A stretch of DNA of 56,094 nucleotides from a virus. Lineage: Duplodnaviria > Caudoviricetes. The notes below the pieces were generated by a model. The model saw nothing but the letters and a program-made list of their open reading frames with translations, was not told the origin of the DNA and did no database searches. The translations under genes and the position numbers were made by a program. Positions 2,377 through 33,817 of the stretch are shown here, piece after piece. How positions within the stretch are numbered: position 1 is the stretch's first letter; every line of letters starts with the position of its first letter. Where the stretch lies: positions 1 to 56,094 of the IMG/VR virus record IMGVR_UViG_3300033145_000771, one strand, 5' to 3'.

Positions 2377-3354
2377 CTAATCTGTTCTTGCGTAACCTGC
2401 CATTGAATAACCTGTCAACTTGCCCTTCTTGATCGCTTTCCAGATCTTGTTGTCAAGTATTCTGGTAACTAATACCCATGAGCCTTTCTTGACCGACTTT
2501 CCTTCGATCACAAAGTCTACAGGAGCAAGATAGTTCTCCAGTATTCGTACCTTAACATTCTTACCTTTGTGCATCACCTTGAAGGTTTGTACTTTTTCCA
2601 TAAACTGATACGCAGCTTTACGGATTTCCTCTGCATTCGCTTCGTCGCCTTGACTGTCTTCTTCATCCGGCTCGTACACAATACCGTAGACAATGCGCTC
2701 CTCTTTCTTAGTAGCTTTAAGAAGAGGTATAAAAGACACTTCTTTCTCAAACATCGGCTTACCGAGTTTGGAAGAACTTTCTACTTTTGGCATTTCTACC
2801 TTCTCTACTTTACAAGCTGGACGCAAAACCTTATCGAACAATGGAATGCAGTCACCACTAAAATCGGTCGTATAGACAAACACACAAGGCTTATCAAGCT
2901 GTTCACCAAGCATCTTGGTAATCGATTCTTCTAAAACCTCGTTTGGCTCGTCTTCATTAGACCATATAACAACCTCTACATCGTCGTTCTCCGCGGTAGC
3001 GAAATCTTCTTTGATAAGCACGGCCACTTTATCTAAGACAATTGGTTTGAATTGAGCAATATCTAAACCGACTCTCTTTATCTCCATCGCTTTTTTGAAT
3101 GCCTGCCGATCGATTGGCTCAGTGCTGTTCTCTAAATCTCGATTACGCATTACTTTCAACAGCATTCTGTATTTCGCTATAACGTCATTACGGTTAAGAC
3201 TTCCAACAACAATATCTTCGCTCTTCTCAAAGTGTTTGTTCCATAGGCCCATGAATCTCAATTTAAGCACATGCAACTCTCTGTCAGAAGCTTTGTTCAA
3301 CTGTTCATGTTCCAAGTCTTCTATACGTAATTTAATCTTATCGAACATATTCAT
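2377..3354 (-). CDS. XkdF-like prohead serine protease core with long N-terminal extension
   Basis: IVYGIVYEPD..D.QGD, MH, ENYLAP, KKGSWVL, IKKGKLTGYSMAG motifs. Confidence 0.85.
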   Translation of the reverse strand: MNMFDKIKLRIEDLEHEQLNKASDRELHVLKLRFMGLWNKHFEKSEDIVVGSLNRNDVIAKYRMLLKVMRNRDLENSTEPIDRQAFKKAMEIKRVGLDIAQFKPIVLDKVAVLIKEDFATAENDDVEVVIWSNEDEPNEVLEESITKMLGEQLDKPCVFVYTTDFSGDCIPLFDKVLRPACKVEKVEMPKVESSSKLGKPMFEKEVSFIPLLKATKKEERIVYGIVYEPDEEDSQGDEANAEEIRKAAYQFMEKVQTFKVMHKGKNVKVRILENYLAPVDFVIEGKSVKKGSWVLVTRILDNKIWKAIKKGKLTGYSMAGYARTD

Positions 3355-5279
3355 TATCCTTTGATTTTTTGGTTTGGAACTCTATGTCTAACTTTCGGCT
3401 TTGCTACAACAGGCTTCGTAGGCTTAACCGTAGGTATCTTCCCAACAGGAGGTTTACCACTAAGCCCTCCTTTGTGACCAAGCTTGCGTAGAGCACGGCT
3501 GATCTTGCTTGATTCGGCAGGACCTGCCTCCTCTAATTTATTGAGCAGACTCTGCACTTGTCCATCATGCAGTCTATCCGGCATAATACACGATGCGTTT
3601 GCCACTTCTCCCGGAGACCCCTGGCAGGGAGGTAAATCATTAACAACGGGCAGCATGGCACATCGGCAATTATGACTTGCAATTCCATTAGCAATATAGT
3701 ATGATTCGGTTGTTTCTAAATTGTAAACATAATTACTGAAATTAAAGGAGTTGATATGTACAACCGAATCGACAAAGAAATCGTTACACAAATTGTCAAT
3801 TTGTACGTTTCCGGATGGTCCGAAAATAGTGTTGCTCTGCATTTTGGATATAGCAGACGCTGTATTCGCAAACGTCTTTTGGATTCCGGTATTCATATCA
3901 GGAACCAAAGCGAGGCCGAAGCACTCAAATGGTCGCAAATGAGTCTTGAGCAACGAAAGGAACAAATTAAAGCTGCTCATGATGCGGCTAAGGGTCGGAC
4001 TGTAAGCTGGTCTACCAAATGCAAACATGCAAAAACGGTCGAAAAGAGACCAAGCAATGTCTCTGAATACGAGATTGTTGTTCAACGAAAGCTGTTTGTT
4101 AGAGGCATTCCGACCATCGCTCAGAAGGCTATCGGTGCCTATAATTGCGATATTGCTGCCAGTCCCGTCATAGTGGAAGTCTGGGGCGGAAACTGGCACT
4201 TCTTTGGTGATCACGCCCGGCGATGCGAAGAACGACTCAGCTATATCCTCAATTGTGGTTGGTTTGTTTATATCCTGCCAATCACTAAAAGATTCCCCCT
4301 GACGGAGGCCATGGCTGATAACTTGGCTTCCTATATCAAGCGAATTCGCAGGGACAAACCCTCTATTCGAGAGTATAGGATGGTTTGGTGTGGCTCTGAT
4401 TATACGACCAGTGGCTGTCTTGATAATATGAATTTTCCCCTTGTACCAACGTTTACTGGCCGCCGTAATCCTGCCTCTGGGAGATATGAGAGAATCGCCC
4501 GGTAGGCAATTTGGGTGGACAGGTATTATCCCTTTTGCCTCCGCTGCGGAATATCTTGTTTCATCCAAACCTAAACAATCGCCACAAGCACCCGGAGAAG
4601 CTGAGAATTCAACTTCAGTGACTCCCACATCTTCTAAGCCTTGTACATAGCCTATATTCTGGGCACGGGCCGTTTCGGTCCGGGCTATGGTAGCTGCACG
4701 CCTTCGGTGGGTCTTGCCGGCATATCGCTGGACCTTCTTATTAATATCGGCCGGCTTTAACTTTGGATACTTTTCTTTGTTCTCAAGAAGCCTGCGATAA
4801 TTGATAATCGACTGCGTTTGATTCTCTGTCAAGCCTACTAAGGGACGGAGTTCGCGGGCAATTTTCGGCATTCCCCGGCCTTCCTTTATCCCGGTTTTAA
4901 TGTAGGTACGAATGCCCATCTTCGTTTTCTTCGTGACTTCTCGTACCAATTCAGCGGTAAATTTTTCAGCAGCAGTAACTGCATTGACATTAAGTACGTC
5001 AAAAGCACCCTTTACCTGAAGTAACTTATAGGCATTATTTCCGCCTGTCTGCATGATTTTTAATGTAGCGGGTTTAAGCATCTCCCGTCCACGTTCCTCG
5101 ATGAAACCCCAATCGGATAACTCGGATGTAATATCCTTAATAAATTTATGTGTTAAGTCGTGACGGATCTGCTTATGGGCAAAATAAAACCAACTACGCA
5201 CAGCAATTAGCATAGTATTCTTATTCCTGCCTACTAAGCTGCTTAAATCACTCTGAATTGTCTTAGCTATAGTAATCAC
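3354..5279 (-). CDS. Minor head morphogenesis protein (MuF/SPP1 gp7-like) containing an intein
   Basis: RAATIARTETARA, C-x2-C, and HPN|CRC motif split by an intein. Confidence 0.85.
   Translation of the reverse strand: MITIAKTIQSDLSSLVGRNKNTMLIAVRSWFYFAHKQIRHDLTHKFIKDITSELSDWGFIEERGREMLKPATLKIMQTGGNNAYKLLQVKGAFDVLNVNAVTAAEKFTAELVREVTKKTKMGIRTYIKTGIKEGRGMPKIARELRPLVGLTENQTQSIINYRRLLENKEKYPKLKPADINKKVQRYAGKTHRRRAATIARTETARAQNIGYVQGLEDVGVTEVEFSASPGACGDCLGLDETRYSAAEAKGIIPVHPNCLPGDSLISPRGRITAASKRWYKGKIHIIKTATGRIIRATPNHPILSNRGFVPANSLDIGSQVISHGLRQGESFSDWQDINKPTTIEDIAESFFASPGVITKEVPVSAPDFHYDGTGSNIAIIGTDSLLSDGRNASNKQLSLNNNLVFRDIAWSLFDRFCMFAFGRPAYSPTLSRIMSSFNLFLSLLKTHLRPFECFGLALVPDMNTGIQKTFANTASAISKMQSNTIFGPSGNVQIDNLCNDFFVDSVVHINSFNFSNYVYNLETTESYYIANGIASHNCRCAMLPVVNDLPPCQGSPGEVANASCIMPDRLHDGQVQSLLNKLEEAGPAESSKISRALRKLGHKGGLSGKPPVGKIPTVKPTKPVVAKPKVRHRVPNQKIKG
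3677..3705 (+). promoter_or_regulatory. Sigma70-like promoter for antisense endonuclease
   Basis: TTGCAA(3677-3682)-17 nt-TATGAT(3700-3705); AAGGAG RBS at 3745-3750. Confidence 0.6.
3756..4505 (+). CDS. HTH + Vsr/DUF559-like PD-(D/E)XK endonuclease, antisense inside the MuF intein
   Basis: HTH (LYVSGWSENSVALHFGYSRRCIRKRL); SEYE...YNCDIA..VIVEVWGGNWH...LNCGWFV; RBS and promoter. Confidence 0.8.
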   Translation: MYNRIDKEIVTQIVNLYVSGWSENSVALHFGYSRRCIRKRLLDSGIHIRNQSEAEALKWSQMSLEQRKEQIKAAHDAAKGRTVSWSTKCKHAKTVEKRPSNVSEYEIVVQRKLFVRGIPTIAQKAIGAYNCDIAASPVIVEVWGGNWHFFGDHARRCEERLSYILNCGWFVYILPITKRFPLTEAMADNLASYIKRIRRDKPSIREYRMVWCGSDYTTSGCLDNMNFPLVPTFTGRRNPASGRYERIAR

Positions 5280-8380: not shown

Positions 8381-11300
8381 TCATGCTGACACCGAACCTT
8401 TCTTTCTTGGTCTGTCTACGGTGTACAATATGTACCGTACAACGTCAAGCGTATGGTCGTTTTTCGCCAAAGGTAAATCTTTAGGATCCCTAGAGGCGGA
8501 GCCCTTTGGGTATTGGTACATGGCCATCTCCCGAGCTGTATTCCGGCAGGACTTAAAGATATATAAGCTCGGCTTCCCATTCGCCTTAACTTTGAGTTTA
8601 CTTTGTACAAGTTCAATACCACGAGCCACATCGTTTCGAGCTATCAGAGTAGGTATGCCGGCTTTGCGAAGCTCGCCTCTGTCCTCAGCATTTTCAGGGT
8701 CTGCGTAAGTTCCTTGATATTTCTCATTAGAACTTCTCGCTTTGATATTAGCAATATGCTCCTGAATGCCGGTTTTGGCTCTGTAATATTCGCGATATAC
8801 ATACCAGTTCTCATCCTTATCCTTAGCAAGCCACAGACAATTGCCACAAACCATCGGCCTGCCTCTACGCCTAACGACTAAAGTATTATACTTAGGAACT
8901 TCAACACAAAATATCATATCGTTATAATCTATTGACATGATTTTCATTTTTTGTACCGCAGCCAACTTAGCTTTGCAAATAGTAAGAATATAATAATCTC
9001 GCATTCCAGAATAACCTGCTGTCTTTGACGTTTTGATAGTCGTAGATTTTCCCAACAAAGCATAAACTTCCTGTAAATCATCTATTAGATTTTTACAAGT
9101 AGAAAAGTGCTGCATTCTATTTCTATCGCTTACTCCATCCCCCATCAAATGTCCTTTGACTAAGTTTTCTAATTCATCCCGACCCCAACTATAAATTTCT
9201 CTTGGAATATTCTTATTCTTATTCGGCGACCATTTTGTATTATTTAAGAACCAACTCCATAAATCTTTGCTTTGAATCCGATAATCTTTTACTCTATTAT
9301 CTGAGATTGCAGTTGTATATTTCCAACCGAGATTATTTAGTATTCTTTCCACTTCCTTACATTTTGTTTTTTGAGCAATTCTTACAAACCAACCGGCTTT
9401 ACCTTTAAGAAGCGATCCGTCAGCAAGCCATAATCCTACAAATTCAGCGAATGCGGTCTTATTTACAGGAGATAGAATGGTCTTAGAACGTTTTCCATGA
9501 GGTACTATAAAATCAACAGTCTTTTTGGCTGATATAGTGTTCCACCCTACAGGTATATCATAACAAGACAATTTTTCAGCAGGTACAAATTTCCATTTCT
9601 TTGGCTTTCTTCTATCTACAACCACCATCTTATGATTGGGCGTTACACAAAAGTTAGCACTTTCAACTCTAGGTGTACTAATTAACATTTTCCCTTTGTA
9701 TCGCTGTTTAATATATTTAACTGGTTTTTGATATTTTATTATTTTTGAAAGAGGATCTATAGTGGCAACTTTTTCTTTTTTATTAAGGTTAGCAAACAAT
9801 TTCCACCCTTCGTTAGTTAATATCTCTGTTTCTTTATCGTAGCAGACGAAAGGATTGGTAAAACCAAAATCAATACCTCGGTAGAGTGTCCAACCATCTG
9901 GAATCCTGAAAGGCTTTATAACATGTATCGAACGGTTGAAGTTTTTATATACAGCGCCATAATAGCTTGCGAACTTACCCTCAATACGAGTAGCCTGCAC
10001 TCCGTCCGGCCACTCAGCAATCATATTATCTATTCGTTGATCCTCTATAAACCCTCCTCGACTCTTCCTGTTATCGTTTAAGTTGAAATGAAATATTTCG
10101 TCTGTTGCGGGTAGTTCCTCTATTCTTTCTTCTAAAAAGGTTTGAGGCATAATAGGTGTCATGCTCCAACTGAGATAACCCTGATAAGTTATCAGTCGTG
10201 CTTGAGTTTCATGTAGTATGCCTTCGAAATCATGGAGACACTGTTCGTCGTAATGAGCAGATTTTATTGCTCTTCCCTGAAACAATGTTCGTCCCTGGTT
10301 GAATGCTTTGAACTCAATGGTATTGCCTGTATTTAAATATATTTTACGAGGCACTTTGTCCTGACCATAACGAATATCAATAATATGATGTTGAGGAATG
10401 AATTTCTGAAGATACTGTTCCCATAGAATATCTCGAACTTGTTCCCAGGTCTCAATTCCTACCCAATGAATTCCTTTAGCTTGCTTAAAAGGATGAATAT
10501 TGAGAGCTAACTGTGCGAGATCCATCATATTGGTATATGTTTTCCCGCTGTTGTGATGAATAACGCCACCTGACAAATAATTGTGATAAATAGGCACATT
10601 AAAATCCCAAATATCATCAAATCTCTTTACATCCAAACTAATTACCGCTATACTGTCATTTGATTTTAATTTAGGAGAATTACATGAAACGTAAGCATCC
10701 TGTTCGTGATCGTGGCCTACCACGGAAATGTTATGATTACCCAGTCGATTCAATCCGCCAATGGATTGCTGAGGGCAAAACTCAGGCATGGATTGGCAGT
10801 AAACTTGGAGTTGATGCAAAGTTAATTCATAAAGTTTGCAAAAAGCATGGCATAAAGTGCCAAAGAACCGGTCCGCGTTCCGGGCCTGAATGCCTATTTT
10901 GGAAAGGAGGTCGAATAATCGATAAAGACGGCTATGTCTCTGTCTATTGTCCGGGGCATCCTTATGCCAAAAAGCCAAACAAGAAGTATGTCCTTGAACA
11001 TCGCTTGATAATGGAACTTTCTCTTGGCCGTTACTTAAAGAGATACGAAATTGTCCATCACAAAAATGGGATAAGAAATGATAACCGTCTTGTAAATCTT
11101 GAGCTTTTTCATTCAAATGCAGAACATCTTCACAAGGAACTAAAGGGTCATTGCCCGAAATGGACGAAGGCTGGAAGAGAAAGGATGTTGGCTGGAGTTG
11201 TGAAATACTGGTCCAATTACAAAAAGAATCTAAAACCAAATGATTCGCCGAGCAAACAATAGATTGCCCATTTGACAGCTTGAGTTCATATAGCTGCGCC

Positions 11301-11572
11301 GGTGTTTTCTTAAATGGCTTATCTGCTTTTGCAATAACCTTCTTTTGTCCATCGAAAGCGTAAACATGAAATGGCTTATCTATGCTGGATACTTCTTTTT
11401 CTATTTTTTCTACAGGATCGTAAATCAATTGTTCTCCGCCTAAACACAAGTTGCCTCCGAACATCCATTGAATAGCGGCCTGCGATTTGAAATAAGCTCG
11501 TTGATCCTCGCTAAGAGGCTTATATAAAGCAATGTGTTTGCCTACTCGCTTTATTTGTTCCACACTAAGCAT
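8381..11572 (-). CDS. terL: Terminase large subunit with two inteins
   Basis: Spliced Walker A GGNL|SGKT, Walker B HYDEQ, SMTP, nuclease GIDFGFTNPFV|CLW, DHTLDVVRY. Confidence 0.95.
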   Translation of the reverse strand: MLSVEQIKRVGKHIALYKPLSEDQRAYFKSQAAIQWMFGGNLCLGGEQLIYDPVEKIEKEVSSIDKPFHVYAFDGQKKVIAKADKPFKKTPAQLYELKLSNGQSIVCSANHLVLDSFCNWTSISQLQPTSFLFQPSSISGNDPLVPCEDVLHLNEKAQDLQDGYHFLSHFCDGQFRISLSNGQEKVPLSSDVQGHTSCLAFWHKDAPDNRQRHSRLYRLFDLLSKIGIQARNADRFFGTLCHAFCKLYELTLHQLQVYCQSMPEFCPQQSIGGLNRLGNHNISVVGHDHEQDAYVSCNSPKLKSNDSIAVISLDVKRFDDIWDFNVPIYHNYLSGGVIHHNSGKTYTNMMDLAQLALNIHPFKQAKGIHWVGIETWEQVRDILWEQYLQKFIPQHHIIDIRYGQDKVPRKIYLNTGNTIEFKAFNQGRTLFQGRAIKSAHYDEQCLHDFEGILHETQARLITYQGYLSWSMTPIMPQTFLEERIEELPATDEIFHFNLNDNRKSRGGFIEDQRIDNMIAEWPDGVQATRIEGKFASYYGAVYKNFNRSIHVIKPFRIPDGWTLYRGIDFGFTNPFVCYDKETEILTNEGWKLFANLNKKEKVATIDPLSKIIKYQKPVKYIKQRYKGKMLISTPRVESANFCVTPNHKMVVVDRRKPKKWKFVPAEKLSCYDIPVGWNTISAKKTVDFIVPHGKRSKTILSPVNKTAFAEFVGLWLADGSLLKGKAGWFVRIAQKTKCKEVERILNNLGWKYTTAISDNRVKDYRIQSKDLWSWFLNNTKWSPNKNKNIPREIYSWGRDELENLVKGHLMGDGVSDRNRMQHFSTCKNLIDDLQEVYALLGKSTTIKTSKTAGYSGMRDYYILTICKAKLAAVQKMKIMSIDYNDMIFCVEVPKYNTLVVRRRGRPMVCGNCLWLAKDKDENWYVYREYYRAKTGIQEHIANIKARSSNEKYQGTYADPENAEDRGELRKAGIPTLIARNDVARGIELVQSKLKVKANGKPSLYIFKSCRNTAREMAMYQYPKGSASRDPKDLPLAKNDHTLDVVRYILYTVDRPRKKGSVSA
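8840..9844 (-). mobile_element. Terminase intein 2 (335 aa) with in-frame LAGLIDADG endonuclease
   Basis: CYDKETEILT...VTPNH...FVGLWLADGS...GHLMGDG...VCGN|C. Confidence 0.9.
10626..10654 (+). promoter_or_regulatory. Sigma70-like promoter for antisense HNH
   Basis: TTTACA(10626-10631)-17 nt-TATACT(10649-10654); AGGAG RBS at 10673-10677. Confidence 0.65.
10684..11262 (+). CDS. HTH + HNH endonuclease, antisense inside terminase intein 1
   Basis: WKGGR..DKDGY, YVLEHRLIME..LGR.L...EIVHHKNGIRNDNRLVNLEL. Confidence 0.9.
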   Translation: MKRKHPVRDRGLPRKCYDYPVDSIRQWIAEGKTQAWIGSKLGVDAKLIHKVCKKHGIKCQRTGPRSGPECLFWKGGRIIDKDGYVSVYCPGHPYAKKPNKKYVLEHRLIMELSLGRYLKRYEIVHHKNGIRNDNRLVNLELFHSNAEHLHKELKGHCPKWTKAGRERMLAGVVKYWSNYKKNLKPNDSPSKQ

Positions 11573-29324: not shown

Positions 29325-29870
29325 TTAAGGCATTTGGCTTCCTGCCGACCTGCCTACAGGTTCTGCCGCCGTAAGTTTCATATAATCATTTGGGAAGTTT
29401 ATTAAAGCAAATTCACCGAAGAACTCTATTGCTGCTTTGTCGTAGGCTTTAGCAGCTTCTTCCTCAGTTGCCCGAGTACCGAGATGCGTCATTTTGCCCT
29501 GGAACTTAATTCTTGCCTCCCACCCTTTTCCTGTTCTGCCCGGCCTTATCCCCTTAAATCTGGACGCCTTGGTTTTCCATGGATGAGAGTTCATCGCATT
29601 TTCCCCCTTCGAACATGCCCTGATGTTGGATTTGCGGTTATTGAGTCCATTATGGTCCCGGTGGTCTGTTGATATGCCATCTTTGGGTTGCAAGCCGAGA
29701 ATCTCGCGGTGCATATAAAAATATAATGTCTTTTTCCCTACCCTCTTACTCCTGATAGCATAAAAAGTGTATGGGGTTTTTAGTACACGCCACTTGTACT
29801 GGTTTATTCGCTCATAATCCTCATCATCAACCACTGCAACTTTGCCTTGCGTTAGTGGAATTGTTTTCAT
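29325..29870 (-). CDS. HNH + AP2 endonuclease
   Basis: IPLTQGK.A.VDDED, MHREIL, DHRDHNGLNNRKSN, WEARI..HLG...EAAKAYD. Confidence 0.9.
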   Translation of the reverse strand: MKTIPLTQGKVAVVDDEDYERINQYKWRVLKTPYTFYAIRSKRVGKKTLYFYMHREILGLQPKDGISTDHRDHNGLNNRKSNIRACSKGENAMNSHPWKTKASRFKGIRPGRTGKGWEARIKFQGKMTHLGTRATEEEAAKAYDKAAIEFFGEFALINFPNDYMKLTAAEPVGRSAGSQMP

Positions 29871-33069: not shown

Positions 33070-33678
33070 TTATCCGAATAATCTTAACTGTCCCTTATTT
33101 GTCGCGTTCTTGCCTAAATTGCATCTCAGATGCGTTGCCTGCACATTTACTGGTGAATCGTTGCCGCCTCTACTGAGCGGAACGATATGGTCAATGCTCC
33201 CTGAGCGGGGATTCGGGTATTTCAGTCTTTTGTTTATCTTCCGTCCGCAAAGCTGGCAAATCCAACCATCACGTTCAAAAACATAATTGGTTGCATAGGG
33301 CTTATGTTTAACTCCACACCTGAAGGCTTTCCGTTTTCTGTCATGAAGCTTGCTTTGTTCTAAATGGGCTTTGCGATATTCCCTTGCACGTTTCTTACAT
33401 TTTTCGGCGTGTTTTTTATAAAAAGCTTTTCTGCGTATTTTTATCTTTTCGCTATTGGCTAACTGGTTTGCTTTAGCGGCTGCTTTCATCTTTTCTGAAT
33501 TAGCTTTGTAATAAGCTTTGCGAATAATCTTAAGGTGGACTGAATTCGCCAAATTATAAGCTTTATCGTATGCTTTCTGGCAAGATTTGCAGAAACTATT
33601 TAGGCCGTCCTTTTTAGTCTTGTTTTTGTGAAATTCCGACAATGGTTTGATTTCTTGACATTTCGAGCAAGTTTTCAT
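33070..33678 (-). CDS. HNH endonuclease with N-terminal Zn finger
   Basis: KTCSKC..KPLSEFH, ERDGWICQLC, SIDHIVPLSRGG, HLRCN. Confidence 0.9.
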   Translation of the reverse strand: MKTCSKCQEIKPLSEFHKNKTKKDGLNSFCKSCQKAYDKAYNLANSVHLKIIRKAYYKANSEKMKAAAKANQLANSEKIKIRRKAFYKKHAEKCKKRAREYRKAHLEQSKLHDRKRKAFRCGVKHKPYATNYVFERDGWICQLCGRKINKRLKYPNPRSGSIDHIVPLSRGGNDSPVNVQATHLRCNLGKNATNKGQLRLFG

Positions 33679-33682
33679 GTTA

Positions 33683-33817
33683 TCTCCAATAAAAAAGCCA
33701 ATCAGGTTGATACCAGCGCGGACAAAGTGCGTCCTCGAACTGACCTGATTGACTTTAGTATTCTTATTAACGCTGGTATCATACATATAAGATAAATCTT
33801 TTATTGGAGATCGTCAA
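33683..33817 (-). promoter_or_regulatory. Promoter + A-B-A'-B'-polyU leader (copy 3)
   Basis: TTGACG-17-TATCTT; TGATACCAGCG/CGCTGGTATCA; AAAGTCAATCAGGT/ACCTGATTGGCTTT. Confidence 0.65.

Follow-up and report, generated by a model that had tools for sequence, protein, structure and literature searches.

Inteins that carry their endonuclease on the opposite strand have been described in actinophages, where antisense LAGLIDADG and antisense VSR-like endonucleases lie within inteins of genes that include terL and the minor capsid gene (Gosselin, Arsenault, and Gogarten, bioRxiv 10.1101/2025.01.02.630785). In its openly readable parts, that preprint credits the antisense LAGLIDADG of Synechocystis DnaX to Gorbalenya 1998 and Gogarten 2002, proposes that the arrangement originated when a free-standing endonuclease gene invaded an intein, gives evidence of continued transfer, and lists HNH endonucleases as an in-frame type only. 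Here, we describe an HNH endonuclease gene that lies antisense within an intein of the large terminase gene (terL) in IMG/VR virus record IMGVR_UViG_3300033145_000771 (Duplodnaviria; Caudoviricetes). This complete virus record of 56,094 bp, which has direct terminal repeats, was analyzed at its full length and is referred to below as the window.

Other described systems share some of these features, as far as the accessible text of each source goes. In fractured genes, a free-standing endonuclease gene lies between the halves of a split intein (Dassa et al. 2009, PMC2677866). The ShiLan insertion of phage methylases hides an out-of-frame HNH gene on the same strand and has no splicing domain (Arsenault et al. 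2025, PMC11855218). P-loop inteins of TerL and other ATPases occupy the classic Lys|Thr site of Walker A (Kelley et al. 2016, PMC5050341).

The locus in the window resembles the published antisense inteins in having a continuous intein open reading frame (ORF), a region between the splicing blocks that is the reverse complement of an intact endonuclease gene, and a phage terL as host (10.1101/2025.01.02.630785). It differs from the LAGLIDADG and VSR-like (EDxHD) types in encoding an HNH_3 protein with a helix-turn-helix (HTH), and its carriers are not actinophages but uncultured environmental phages, Pectobacterium phages, and metagenome-assembled genome (MAG) contigs labeled with many phyla. 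As in fractured genes, an endonuclease gene of free-standing type with its own (here putative) expression signals sits within the intein of a phage replication or packaging gene (PMC2677866); unlike in fractured genes, the host gene is unbroken, the sense frame reads through, and the intein is contiguous and predicted to splice in cis. As in ShiLan, the HNH gene overlaps a host ORF that is open throughout, the in-frame product being regarded as a tolerated loop; unlike in ShiLan, the HNH gene lies on the antisense strand, between the lobes of a complete Hint domain (PMC11855218). The insertion into Walker A is shared with the inteins of Kelley et al. (PMC5050341), and one of the two insertion sites in the family described here ("site b," GK|T) coincides with their classic Lys|Thr site. 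Intein 1 of the window, in contrast, uses a site three residues upstream of it ("site a," GGNL/R|SGKT) and has an antisense HNH rather than an in-frame LAGLIDADG. In the openly readable literature, we found no report of an antisense HNH gene in an intein; subscription journals and supplementary files fell outside that search. An antisense endonuclease in an intein is, as a concept, already published for the LAGLIDADG and VSR-like types; what is new here is the HNH as an antisense family, the size and breadth of that family, its fixed phase, the measurement of selection on one strand, and the statistics of stop avoidance.

Very distant terL genes and P-loop NTPase genes of other kinds harbor the HNH-intein as well, without exception at Walker A and in a single codon phase. 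We put the probability at roughly 80% that the window's copy, intein 1, is a mobile, splicing-competent class-1 P-loop terL intein whose homing module is a separate HNH gene on the opposite strand.

The terL intein and the HNH gene opposite it

The terL precursor (8381-11572, minus strand) is flanked by a portal gene on one side and by a DUF5681 gene, in a possible small-terminase position, on the other. A megablast search of the phage collection with this terL returned no match. The precursor is a single continuous ORF of 1,063 amino acids with two inteins inside, and a split-intein reading was rejected because this ORF is uninterrupted. Intein 1 (10550-11446, minus strand; 299 residues, terL residues 43 to 341) splits the Walker A motif as FGGNL|SGKT. 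It starts with CLGGEQ, with Cys as its first residue, and ends with GGVIHHN; the Ser of SGKT (10538-10549, minus strand), where the C-extein begins with the remainder of Walker A, is the +1 nucleophile. The N-lobe of the Hint domain (11156-11446, minus strand; intein residues 1 to 97) holds block A with Cys1 and block B (CSANH, 11240-11254), and the C-lobe (10550-10684, minus strand; residues 255 to 299) holds blocks F and G and the HHN end. Between them lies a linker on the sense strand (10685-11155, minus strand; residues 98 to 254), a stop-free and unconserved spacer that is predicted to be unstructured.

Intein 1 combines the residues expected of a class-1 intein (N-terminal Cys, block B His, C-terminal HN, and +1 Ser) with an in-frame insertion relative to intein-less homologs, as all 23 of the closest terL relatives are unbroken at this position. 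An alignment of 64 inteins is invariant at C1, H69 (the block B His of CSANH), D281, V284, and N299. A first-pass annotation, made from the sequence alone, had described the splicing motifs as intact, which the presence and invariance of C1, H69, and N299 bear out. These motifs, together with the essential nature of terL, suggest that intein 1 would splice. The same annotation had found no recognizable domain in the linker, and we reach the same result: Intein_splicing is the only Pfam match of the intein 1 sense product, and the linker on its own has no match by BLASTP, in Pfam, or among the PHROGs.

The HNH gene (10684-11262, plus strand) encodes 192 amino acids and lies wholly within intein 1. 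Its product matches Pfam HNH_3 at 34.7 bits (cutoff, 24.8) and 12 PHROG HNH families (best, 1e-27), with an HTH at residues 21 to 54, a beta-beta-alpha HNH core at residues 102 to 153, and a C-terminal helix at residues 162 to 181. Twenty columns are invariant among 81 HNH sequences, including E/H106, H125, H126, N134, N138, and H148 (the last five invariant or nearly so), and the window protein has every one of the 20 residues. The HTH-HNH assignment made in the first-pass annotation is therefore upheld by the Pfam and PHROG matches and by the modeled HTH and core, and so is its observation that the tail of the HNH gene overlaps block B, since CSANH is encoded at 11240-11254 within the last HNH codons.

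Candidate expression signals precede the gene. A Shine-Dalgarno sequence, AGGAG (10673-10677, plus strand), stands 6 nucleotides upstream of the HNH ATG, and a sigma-70-like match, TTTACA-17-TATACT (10626-10654, plus strand), lies inside the region coding for the Hint C-lobe. Both elements had been proposed in the first-pass annotation and both are where it placed them. As a promoter, however, the second is a match to consensus only: it fits at 10 of 12 positions and is the best of five sites, but promoter-like sites are no commoner in this region than in shuffles (5 versus 4.3 ± 2.1).

We modeled both products with AlphaFold, using an 81-sequence alignment for the HNH protein and a 64-sequence alignment for the sense intein. 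The HNH model has a mean predicted local distance difference test score (pLDDT) of 83.8 and shows three N-terminal helices (residues 21 to 54), the beta-beta-alpha core (residues 102 to 153), and a C-terminal helix. Its top structural match is I-HmuI (PDB 1u3e), an endonuclease of phage group I introns, both by Foldseek (E value, 0.11; probability, 0.97) and by VIA (Z 6.5; root mean square deviation, 4.2; 81 residues). The HNH_3 type fits this match, although the similarity is modest (20% identity) and I-HmuI, unlike the present protein, is intron encoded and on the sense strand. Many HTH DNA-binding domains resemble the N-terminal helices, again modestly (Z 5 to 6.4), and a profile search of PDB sequences with the HNH alignment gave only an uninformative match of the HTH region to a "CAP repeat" chain.

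In the model of the sense intein, residues 1 to 97 are all beta with pLDDT values of at least 95 and residues 261 to 299 have values of 86 to 98, while residues 98 to 254 fall below 50 and have no secondary structure. Foldseek matches the folded part to the Ssp and Npu DnaB mini-inteins and to the Mtu RecA splicing domain, each at a probability of 1.00 (6frg, E value of 2.4e-6; 4o1r, target-normalized TM-score of 0.84). The sense product is thus predicted to be a mini-intein (Hint) fold with an unstructured loop of about 157 residues between its two lobes. Double function is confined to one short stretch, since it is only from about residue 159 on that the HNH protein is encoded opposite the folded N-lobe.

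Nesting and selection across the family

We searched phage and prokaryotic collections for relatives of the HNH gene. A tblastn search of GenBank phages returned 192 records, only eight of which cover at least 80% of the query; all eight are Pectobacterium/Dickeya phages, and their HNH proteins are 36 to 37% identical to that of the window. Nesting and codon phase are the same in the five such loci that we fetched (at least five of the eight). In phage Ymer, the HNH match is antisense, in the same phase, within a 754-residue ORF that adjoins the portal gene and contains an intein at the same place (AGFG|C...HHN|TGKS); four further Pectobacterium/Dickeya records share this 2,265-nucleotide ORF. 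The records of Ymer (L001), Sabo (L007), Taid (L008), and Abuela (L010) label the intein-bearing terL "hypothetical protein," leave the HNH gene uncalled, and give the name "terminase" to a small upstream ORF, and the record of Setonix, a fifth Pectobacterium phage, has no annotation at all.

In IMG/VR, the nested family was reached by an alignment-based scan only. Scanning with the single HNH protein returned 3 relatives, all free-standing, and scanning with the sense intein returned none; the HNH alignment retrieved at least 574 confirmed relatives (at least 599 pattern matches), of which we kept the best 80, at 40 to 67% identity. All 80 lie inside an open frame of the opposite strand, in identical phase, and these frames are 523 to 1,175 residues long or run off the contig. 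Intein junctions could be parsed at 65 of 81 loci, the other 16 being run-offs or variant junctions: 53 are at site a (GGNR|SGKT type, as in the window) and 12 are at site b (GK|T). For the 64-intein alignment, we excluded the 16 unparsed loci and one locus with a wrong N-terminal boundary (L025), all of which were kept in the HNH analyses. The consensus of the DNA flanking the insertions is P-loop coding sequence.

In contigs of prokaryotic genomes and MAGs, the best 80 hits comprise 31 nested copies, which share the same phase throughout and are mostly the top-scoring ones, and 49 more distant, free-standing copies, which lack a comparable open frame on the antisense strand. On several of these contigs (L131-L133, L139, L145, L147, L122, and L128), the antisense-HNH intein lies at the Walker A motif of a nonterminase gene, the hosts being Sno-type (AAA_34/Helicase_C_4) helicases, SNF2 helicases, and another ATPase. 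We did not count L128 (AAA_2 host) as a confirmed intein, because Gly follows HHN and the junction is unclear, nor L177, where no clear intein ends are seen. At L177 (1919-3643, minus strand), an HNH relative lies antisense in a methylase-like open frame with a DPPAGISF motif, which recalls the intein-less ShiLan type except that the HNH gene is on the opposite strand.

These loci allow the two strands to be compared as proteins. Between the window and Ymer, six-frame BLASTP of the overlap finds the HNH frame (103 bits; E value, 1e-31; 39% identity over 150 residues), while the terL frame gives no match at an E value below 10; the terL frame nevertheless has 0 stops in both phages, against 8 to 18 in the four other frames. 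Over 164 well-occupied codon columns of 83 sequences, the first, second, and third HNH codon positions have entropies of 1.10, 0.92, and 1.63 bits. The maximum at position 3 is the signature of coding in the HNH frame, and it makes position 2 the most variable codon position of the terL frame. The HNH frame averages 47.9% pairwise amino acid identity and the terL frame 22.9%; of the three antisense frames, the terL frame is the least conserved and yet the sole stop-free one (0 stops versus 5.4 and 7.9 per sequence). The conservation pattern of the HNH frame persists in the stretch opposite the folded N-lobe.

We estimated ratios of nonsynonymous to synonymous substitution rates (dN/dS) by the Nei-Gojobori method for 132 pairs at 3 to 30% nucleotide divergence, which are not phylogenetically independent of one another. 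The median is 0.136 in the HNH frame and 1.87 in the terL frame, and in every one of the 132 pairs the HNH frame has the lower value. That the terL frame exceeds 1 results from the overlap and not from positive selection. The plus-strand ORF is thus an HTH-HNH protein under purifying selection, and the minus-strand reading through it is kept stop-free but otherwise unconstrained. A comparison of conservation by strand, which the first-pass annotation had named as a check that could refute its reading, therefore comes out for the HNH protein (48% identity and dN/dS of 0.14, versus 23% and 1.9 for the linker).

Stop avoidance on the sense strand can also be quantified. When the HNH ORF is shuffled synonymously, 10.2 stops are expected in the terL frame of the window, 5.2 in that of Ymer, and 6.5 in that of Taid, where 0 are observed; shuffles that reach zero number 0, 3, and 0, respectively, each of 5,000. 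The overlap has 0 terL-frame stops in all 83 sequences. Free-standing relatives provide a natural control: 49 of them average 4.58 stops per 100 codons in that phase, compared with 0 in 12,657 codons of 80 nested genes. In the converse shuffle, with the sense peptide of the window fixed, 5.0 stops are expected in the HNH frame and 4 of 5,000 shuffles remain open. Both directions being improbable, shuffle tests alone do not tell which of the frames is selected.

We also weighed the inverse arrangement, in which function lies in the sense linker, as a novel domain read in frame, and the plus-strand ORF results from the composition of that linker. That both frames are open, and that the antisense frame is itself improbable given the sense protein, fits this arrangement as well. 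The linker, however, is the least conserved antisense frame (23%), varies most at codon position 2, has a dN/dS of 1.87, matches nothing in BLASTP, Pfam, or PHROG searches, and is predicted to be unstructured, so that a functional linker is barely credible.

The phase itself may matter for keeping the sense frame open. Codon position 1 of the HNH gene is opposite codon position 1 of terL, and the open antisense frame is index 2. By the genetic code, a sense stop arises in this phase only where two adjacent HNH codons read xTT|A, xCT|A, or xTC|A. Synonymous codons avoid nearly all such stops; only Phe before Ile, Met, Thr, Asn, or Lys is an exception. This phase thus lets almost every sense stop be removed without changing the HNH protein, which may explain why it is fixed, a plausible explanation that follows from the genetic code.

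Mobility of the element

We compared the window with its closest terL relatives in IMG/VR, 23 open frames of 416 to 468 residues that are 58 to 79% identical over terL residues 342 to 576. Both inteins are absent from all 23. The intein 1 site is empty in each (FGGNLSGKT or FGGNQSSKT), as is the intein 2 site (NPFVCLW or a variant), and tblastn at E values of ≤1e-3 finds no HNH homolog in the 112 kb of these 23 loci, within about 2.5 kb of terL. Conversely, the window HNH is 58 to 61% identical to HNH proteins whose terL exteins are only 15 to 20% identical to those of the window. Two IMG/VR pairs (L043 and L047; L040 and L053) have exteins that are 94% identical, HNH proteins that are 35 to 36% identical, and Hint lobes that are 41 to 49% identical, which suggests that the site was invaded independently or that the element there was replaced. 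Hint-lobe identity follows HNH identity (r = 0.87; partial r = 0.78 with the extein held constant) better than it follows extein identity, which indicates that the Hint domain and the HNH gene travel as one unit. Together, the absence of the intein from close terL relatives and the disagreement between HNH and extein similarities indicate that this unit is mobile. The distribution is sporadic and incongruent with the host gene in both directions, as expected of a homing endonuclease gene.

Several results weigh against the interpretation of intein 1 as a mobile element with an active homing gene. Besides the promoter shuffles, the modest similarity to I-HmuI, and the interdependence of the dN/dS pairs, a recognizable Shine-Dalgarno core is present at only 34 of 83 loci; the loci were picked by HNH similarity, so decayed copies are undersampled; and the low pLDDT of the loop may partly reflect the absence of conservation in the alignment. 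The overlaps of Ymer and Taid differ at 26 positions, with 10 synonymous and 14 nonsynonymous changes in the HNH frame and hence no purifying signal. This overlap is 3.7% diverged while the C-extein is 11.5% diverged, a threefold difference; for these two phages, this suggests recent transfer or double constraint and not a measurable effect of purifying selection.

Some of these points would also fit a silent relic, that is, a mini-intein with a long spacer, inherited only vertically, whose HNH endonuclease is unexpressed or inactive. The promoter match that does not rise above chance and the Ymer/Taid pair agree with such a relic, as does the lack of a close intein-bearing relative of the window (the nearest HNH is 67% identical on its best segment), which means that selection in the window's own recent lineage cannot be measured. 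A relic is nonetheless hard to reconcile with an ORF that is intact at 192 residues, has an ATG and AGGAG, and keeps all 20 family-invariant residues, where about 5 stops would be expected, given the sense protein, in an antisense ORF free of selection and only 4 of 5,000 shuffles are open. The intein-less state of 23 of 23 closest terL relatives points, moreover, to a comparatively recent arrival. On balance, we regard a relic as improbable.

A different role for an expressed HNH protein is also conceivable: it might be a packaging nuclease of the HK97 gp74 type or serve the phage in another way, for example, in competition with co-infecting phages. HNH genes beside terminase genes are common packaging factors, according to the accessible text of PMC3592412, and this one is located inside terL. 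Unlike gp74-like HNH proteins, however, it is not a conserved companion of the terminase, since the 23 closest phages, which have the same terminase type, lack a homologue within about 2.5 kb of terL, and the HNH-intein also occurs in helicase genes unrelated to packaging. The protein combines an HTH with HNH_3, its top structural match is a homing enzyme, and the genome encodes a separate PF01844-type HNH protein elsewhere (33070-33786). A role in packaging or competition is thus very unlikely, and homing remains the favored function of the HNH gene.

If intein 1 is such a homing element, its expression, cleavage, and splicing, as proposed from sequence, would proceed as follows. The HNH gene would have its own promoter, directed against the late operon, and its translation would start at its own AGGAG-ATG. 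When phages co-infect a cell, the HNH protein would nick or cut intein-less Walker A DNA (GGnGGnAAyCTn/CGn | TCn/AGyGGnAAAACn), and recombinational repair on the intein-bearing template would copy the intein and the HNH gene together. After translation of terL, the Hint domain would excise itself along with the meaningless loop, restoring FGGNLSGKT.

We consider it rather probable, though well short of assured, that this locus represents a large unannotated family of P-loop-homing inteins in which the HNH gene is always antisense in one phase, the sense strand is selected only to be translatable, and the element hops among the Walker A sites of unrelated NTPases. Its host genes, carried by phages and by MAG contigs labeled with many bacterial phyla, would encode large terminases, Sno-type and SNF2 helicases, and other ATPases. 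If this is true, the family would be among the largest natural antisense dual-coding gene families of prokaryotic viruses and a clean natural system for studying co-encoding by two strands. The loci analyzed here already show quantitatively that selection keeps one strand as a protein and the other only open. Because gene callers give the long terL ORF only, hundreds of endonuclease genes and terminases are probably misannotated or missed. The element supports the view that free-standing endonuclease genes invade preexisting inteins, and its presence in several classes of NTPase genes makes it testable whether shared nucleotide-binding motifs let inteins switch hosts. For applications, an intein that carries an arbitrary loop of about 157 residues is of interest for intein engineering, and an HNH protein that putatively recognizes P-loop coding DNA could serve as a nicking or cutting reagent.

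Other inteins and HNH genes of the window

The second intein of terL (8840-9844, minus strand; 335 residues, terL residues 577 to 911) lies between NPFV and CLW and has an in-frame LAGLIDADG endonuclease with two LAGLIDADG_3 stretches (E value, 9.6e-7), in agreement with its earlier description as canonical and conventional. It ends in VCGN|C, with Gly at the penultimate position where His is usual; judging from this sequence, its splicing may depend on compensating residues.

Two further free-standing HNH-type genes are present in the window, both on the minus strand. The gene at 29325-29870 has a weak HNH_3 match (20.8 bits, below the cutoff), and that at 33070-33786 has a clear PF01844 HNH match (39 bits).

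A third gene of the window combines an intein with an antisense ORF. The MuF-like minor capsid gene (3354-5279, minus strand; 641 amino acids) matches Phage_Mu_F and Intein_splicing, and its intein runs from CLPGDS to SHN|C. The linker of this intein is antisense to a 249-residue ORF (3756-4505, plus strand) in the codon-aligned phase. In this case, the open antisense frame is index 0, whereas it is index 2 for the HNH gene, so the first-pass annotation was right that the two offsets differ. Synonymous shuffling cannot test the MuF case, as the codon-aligned phase keeps the number of stops constant. The 249-residue ORF has no sequence match in Pfam, the PHROGs, or the PDB, and DUF559 (Vsr-like) and HTH families are represented in the ESM Atlas clusters nearest to it (score, 0.97). 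All 9 of its 9 IMG/VR relatives are nested in the same phase in MuF-like ORFs whose inteins end in THN|C, and this ORF is probably of the published "anti-sense VSR-like" type.

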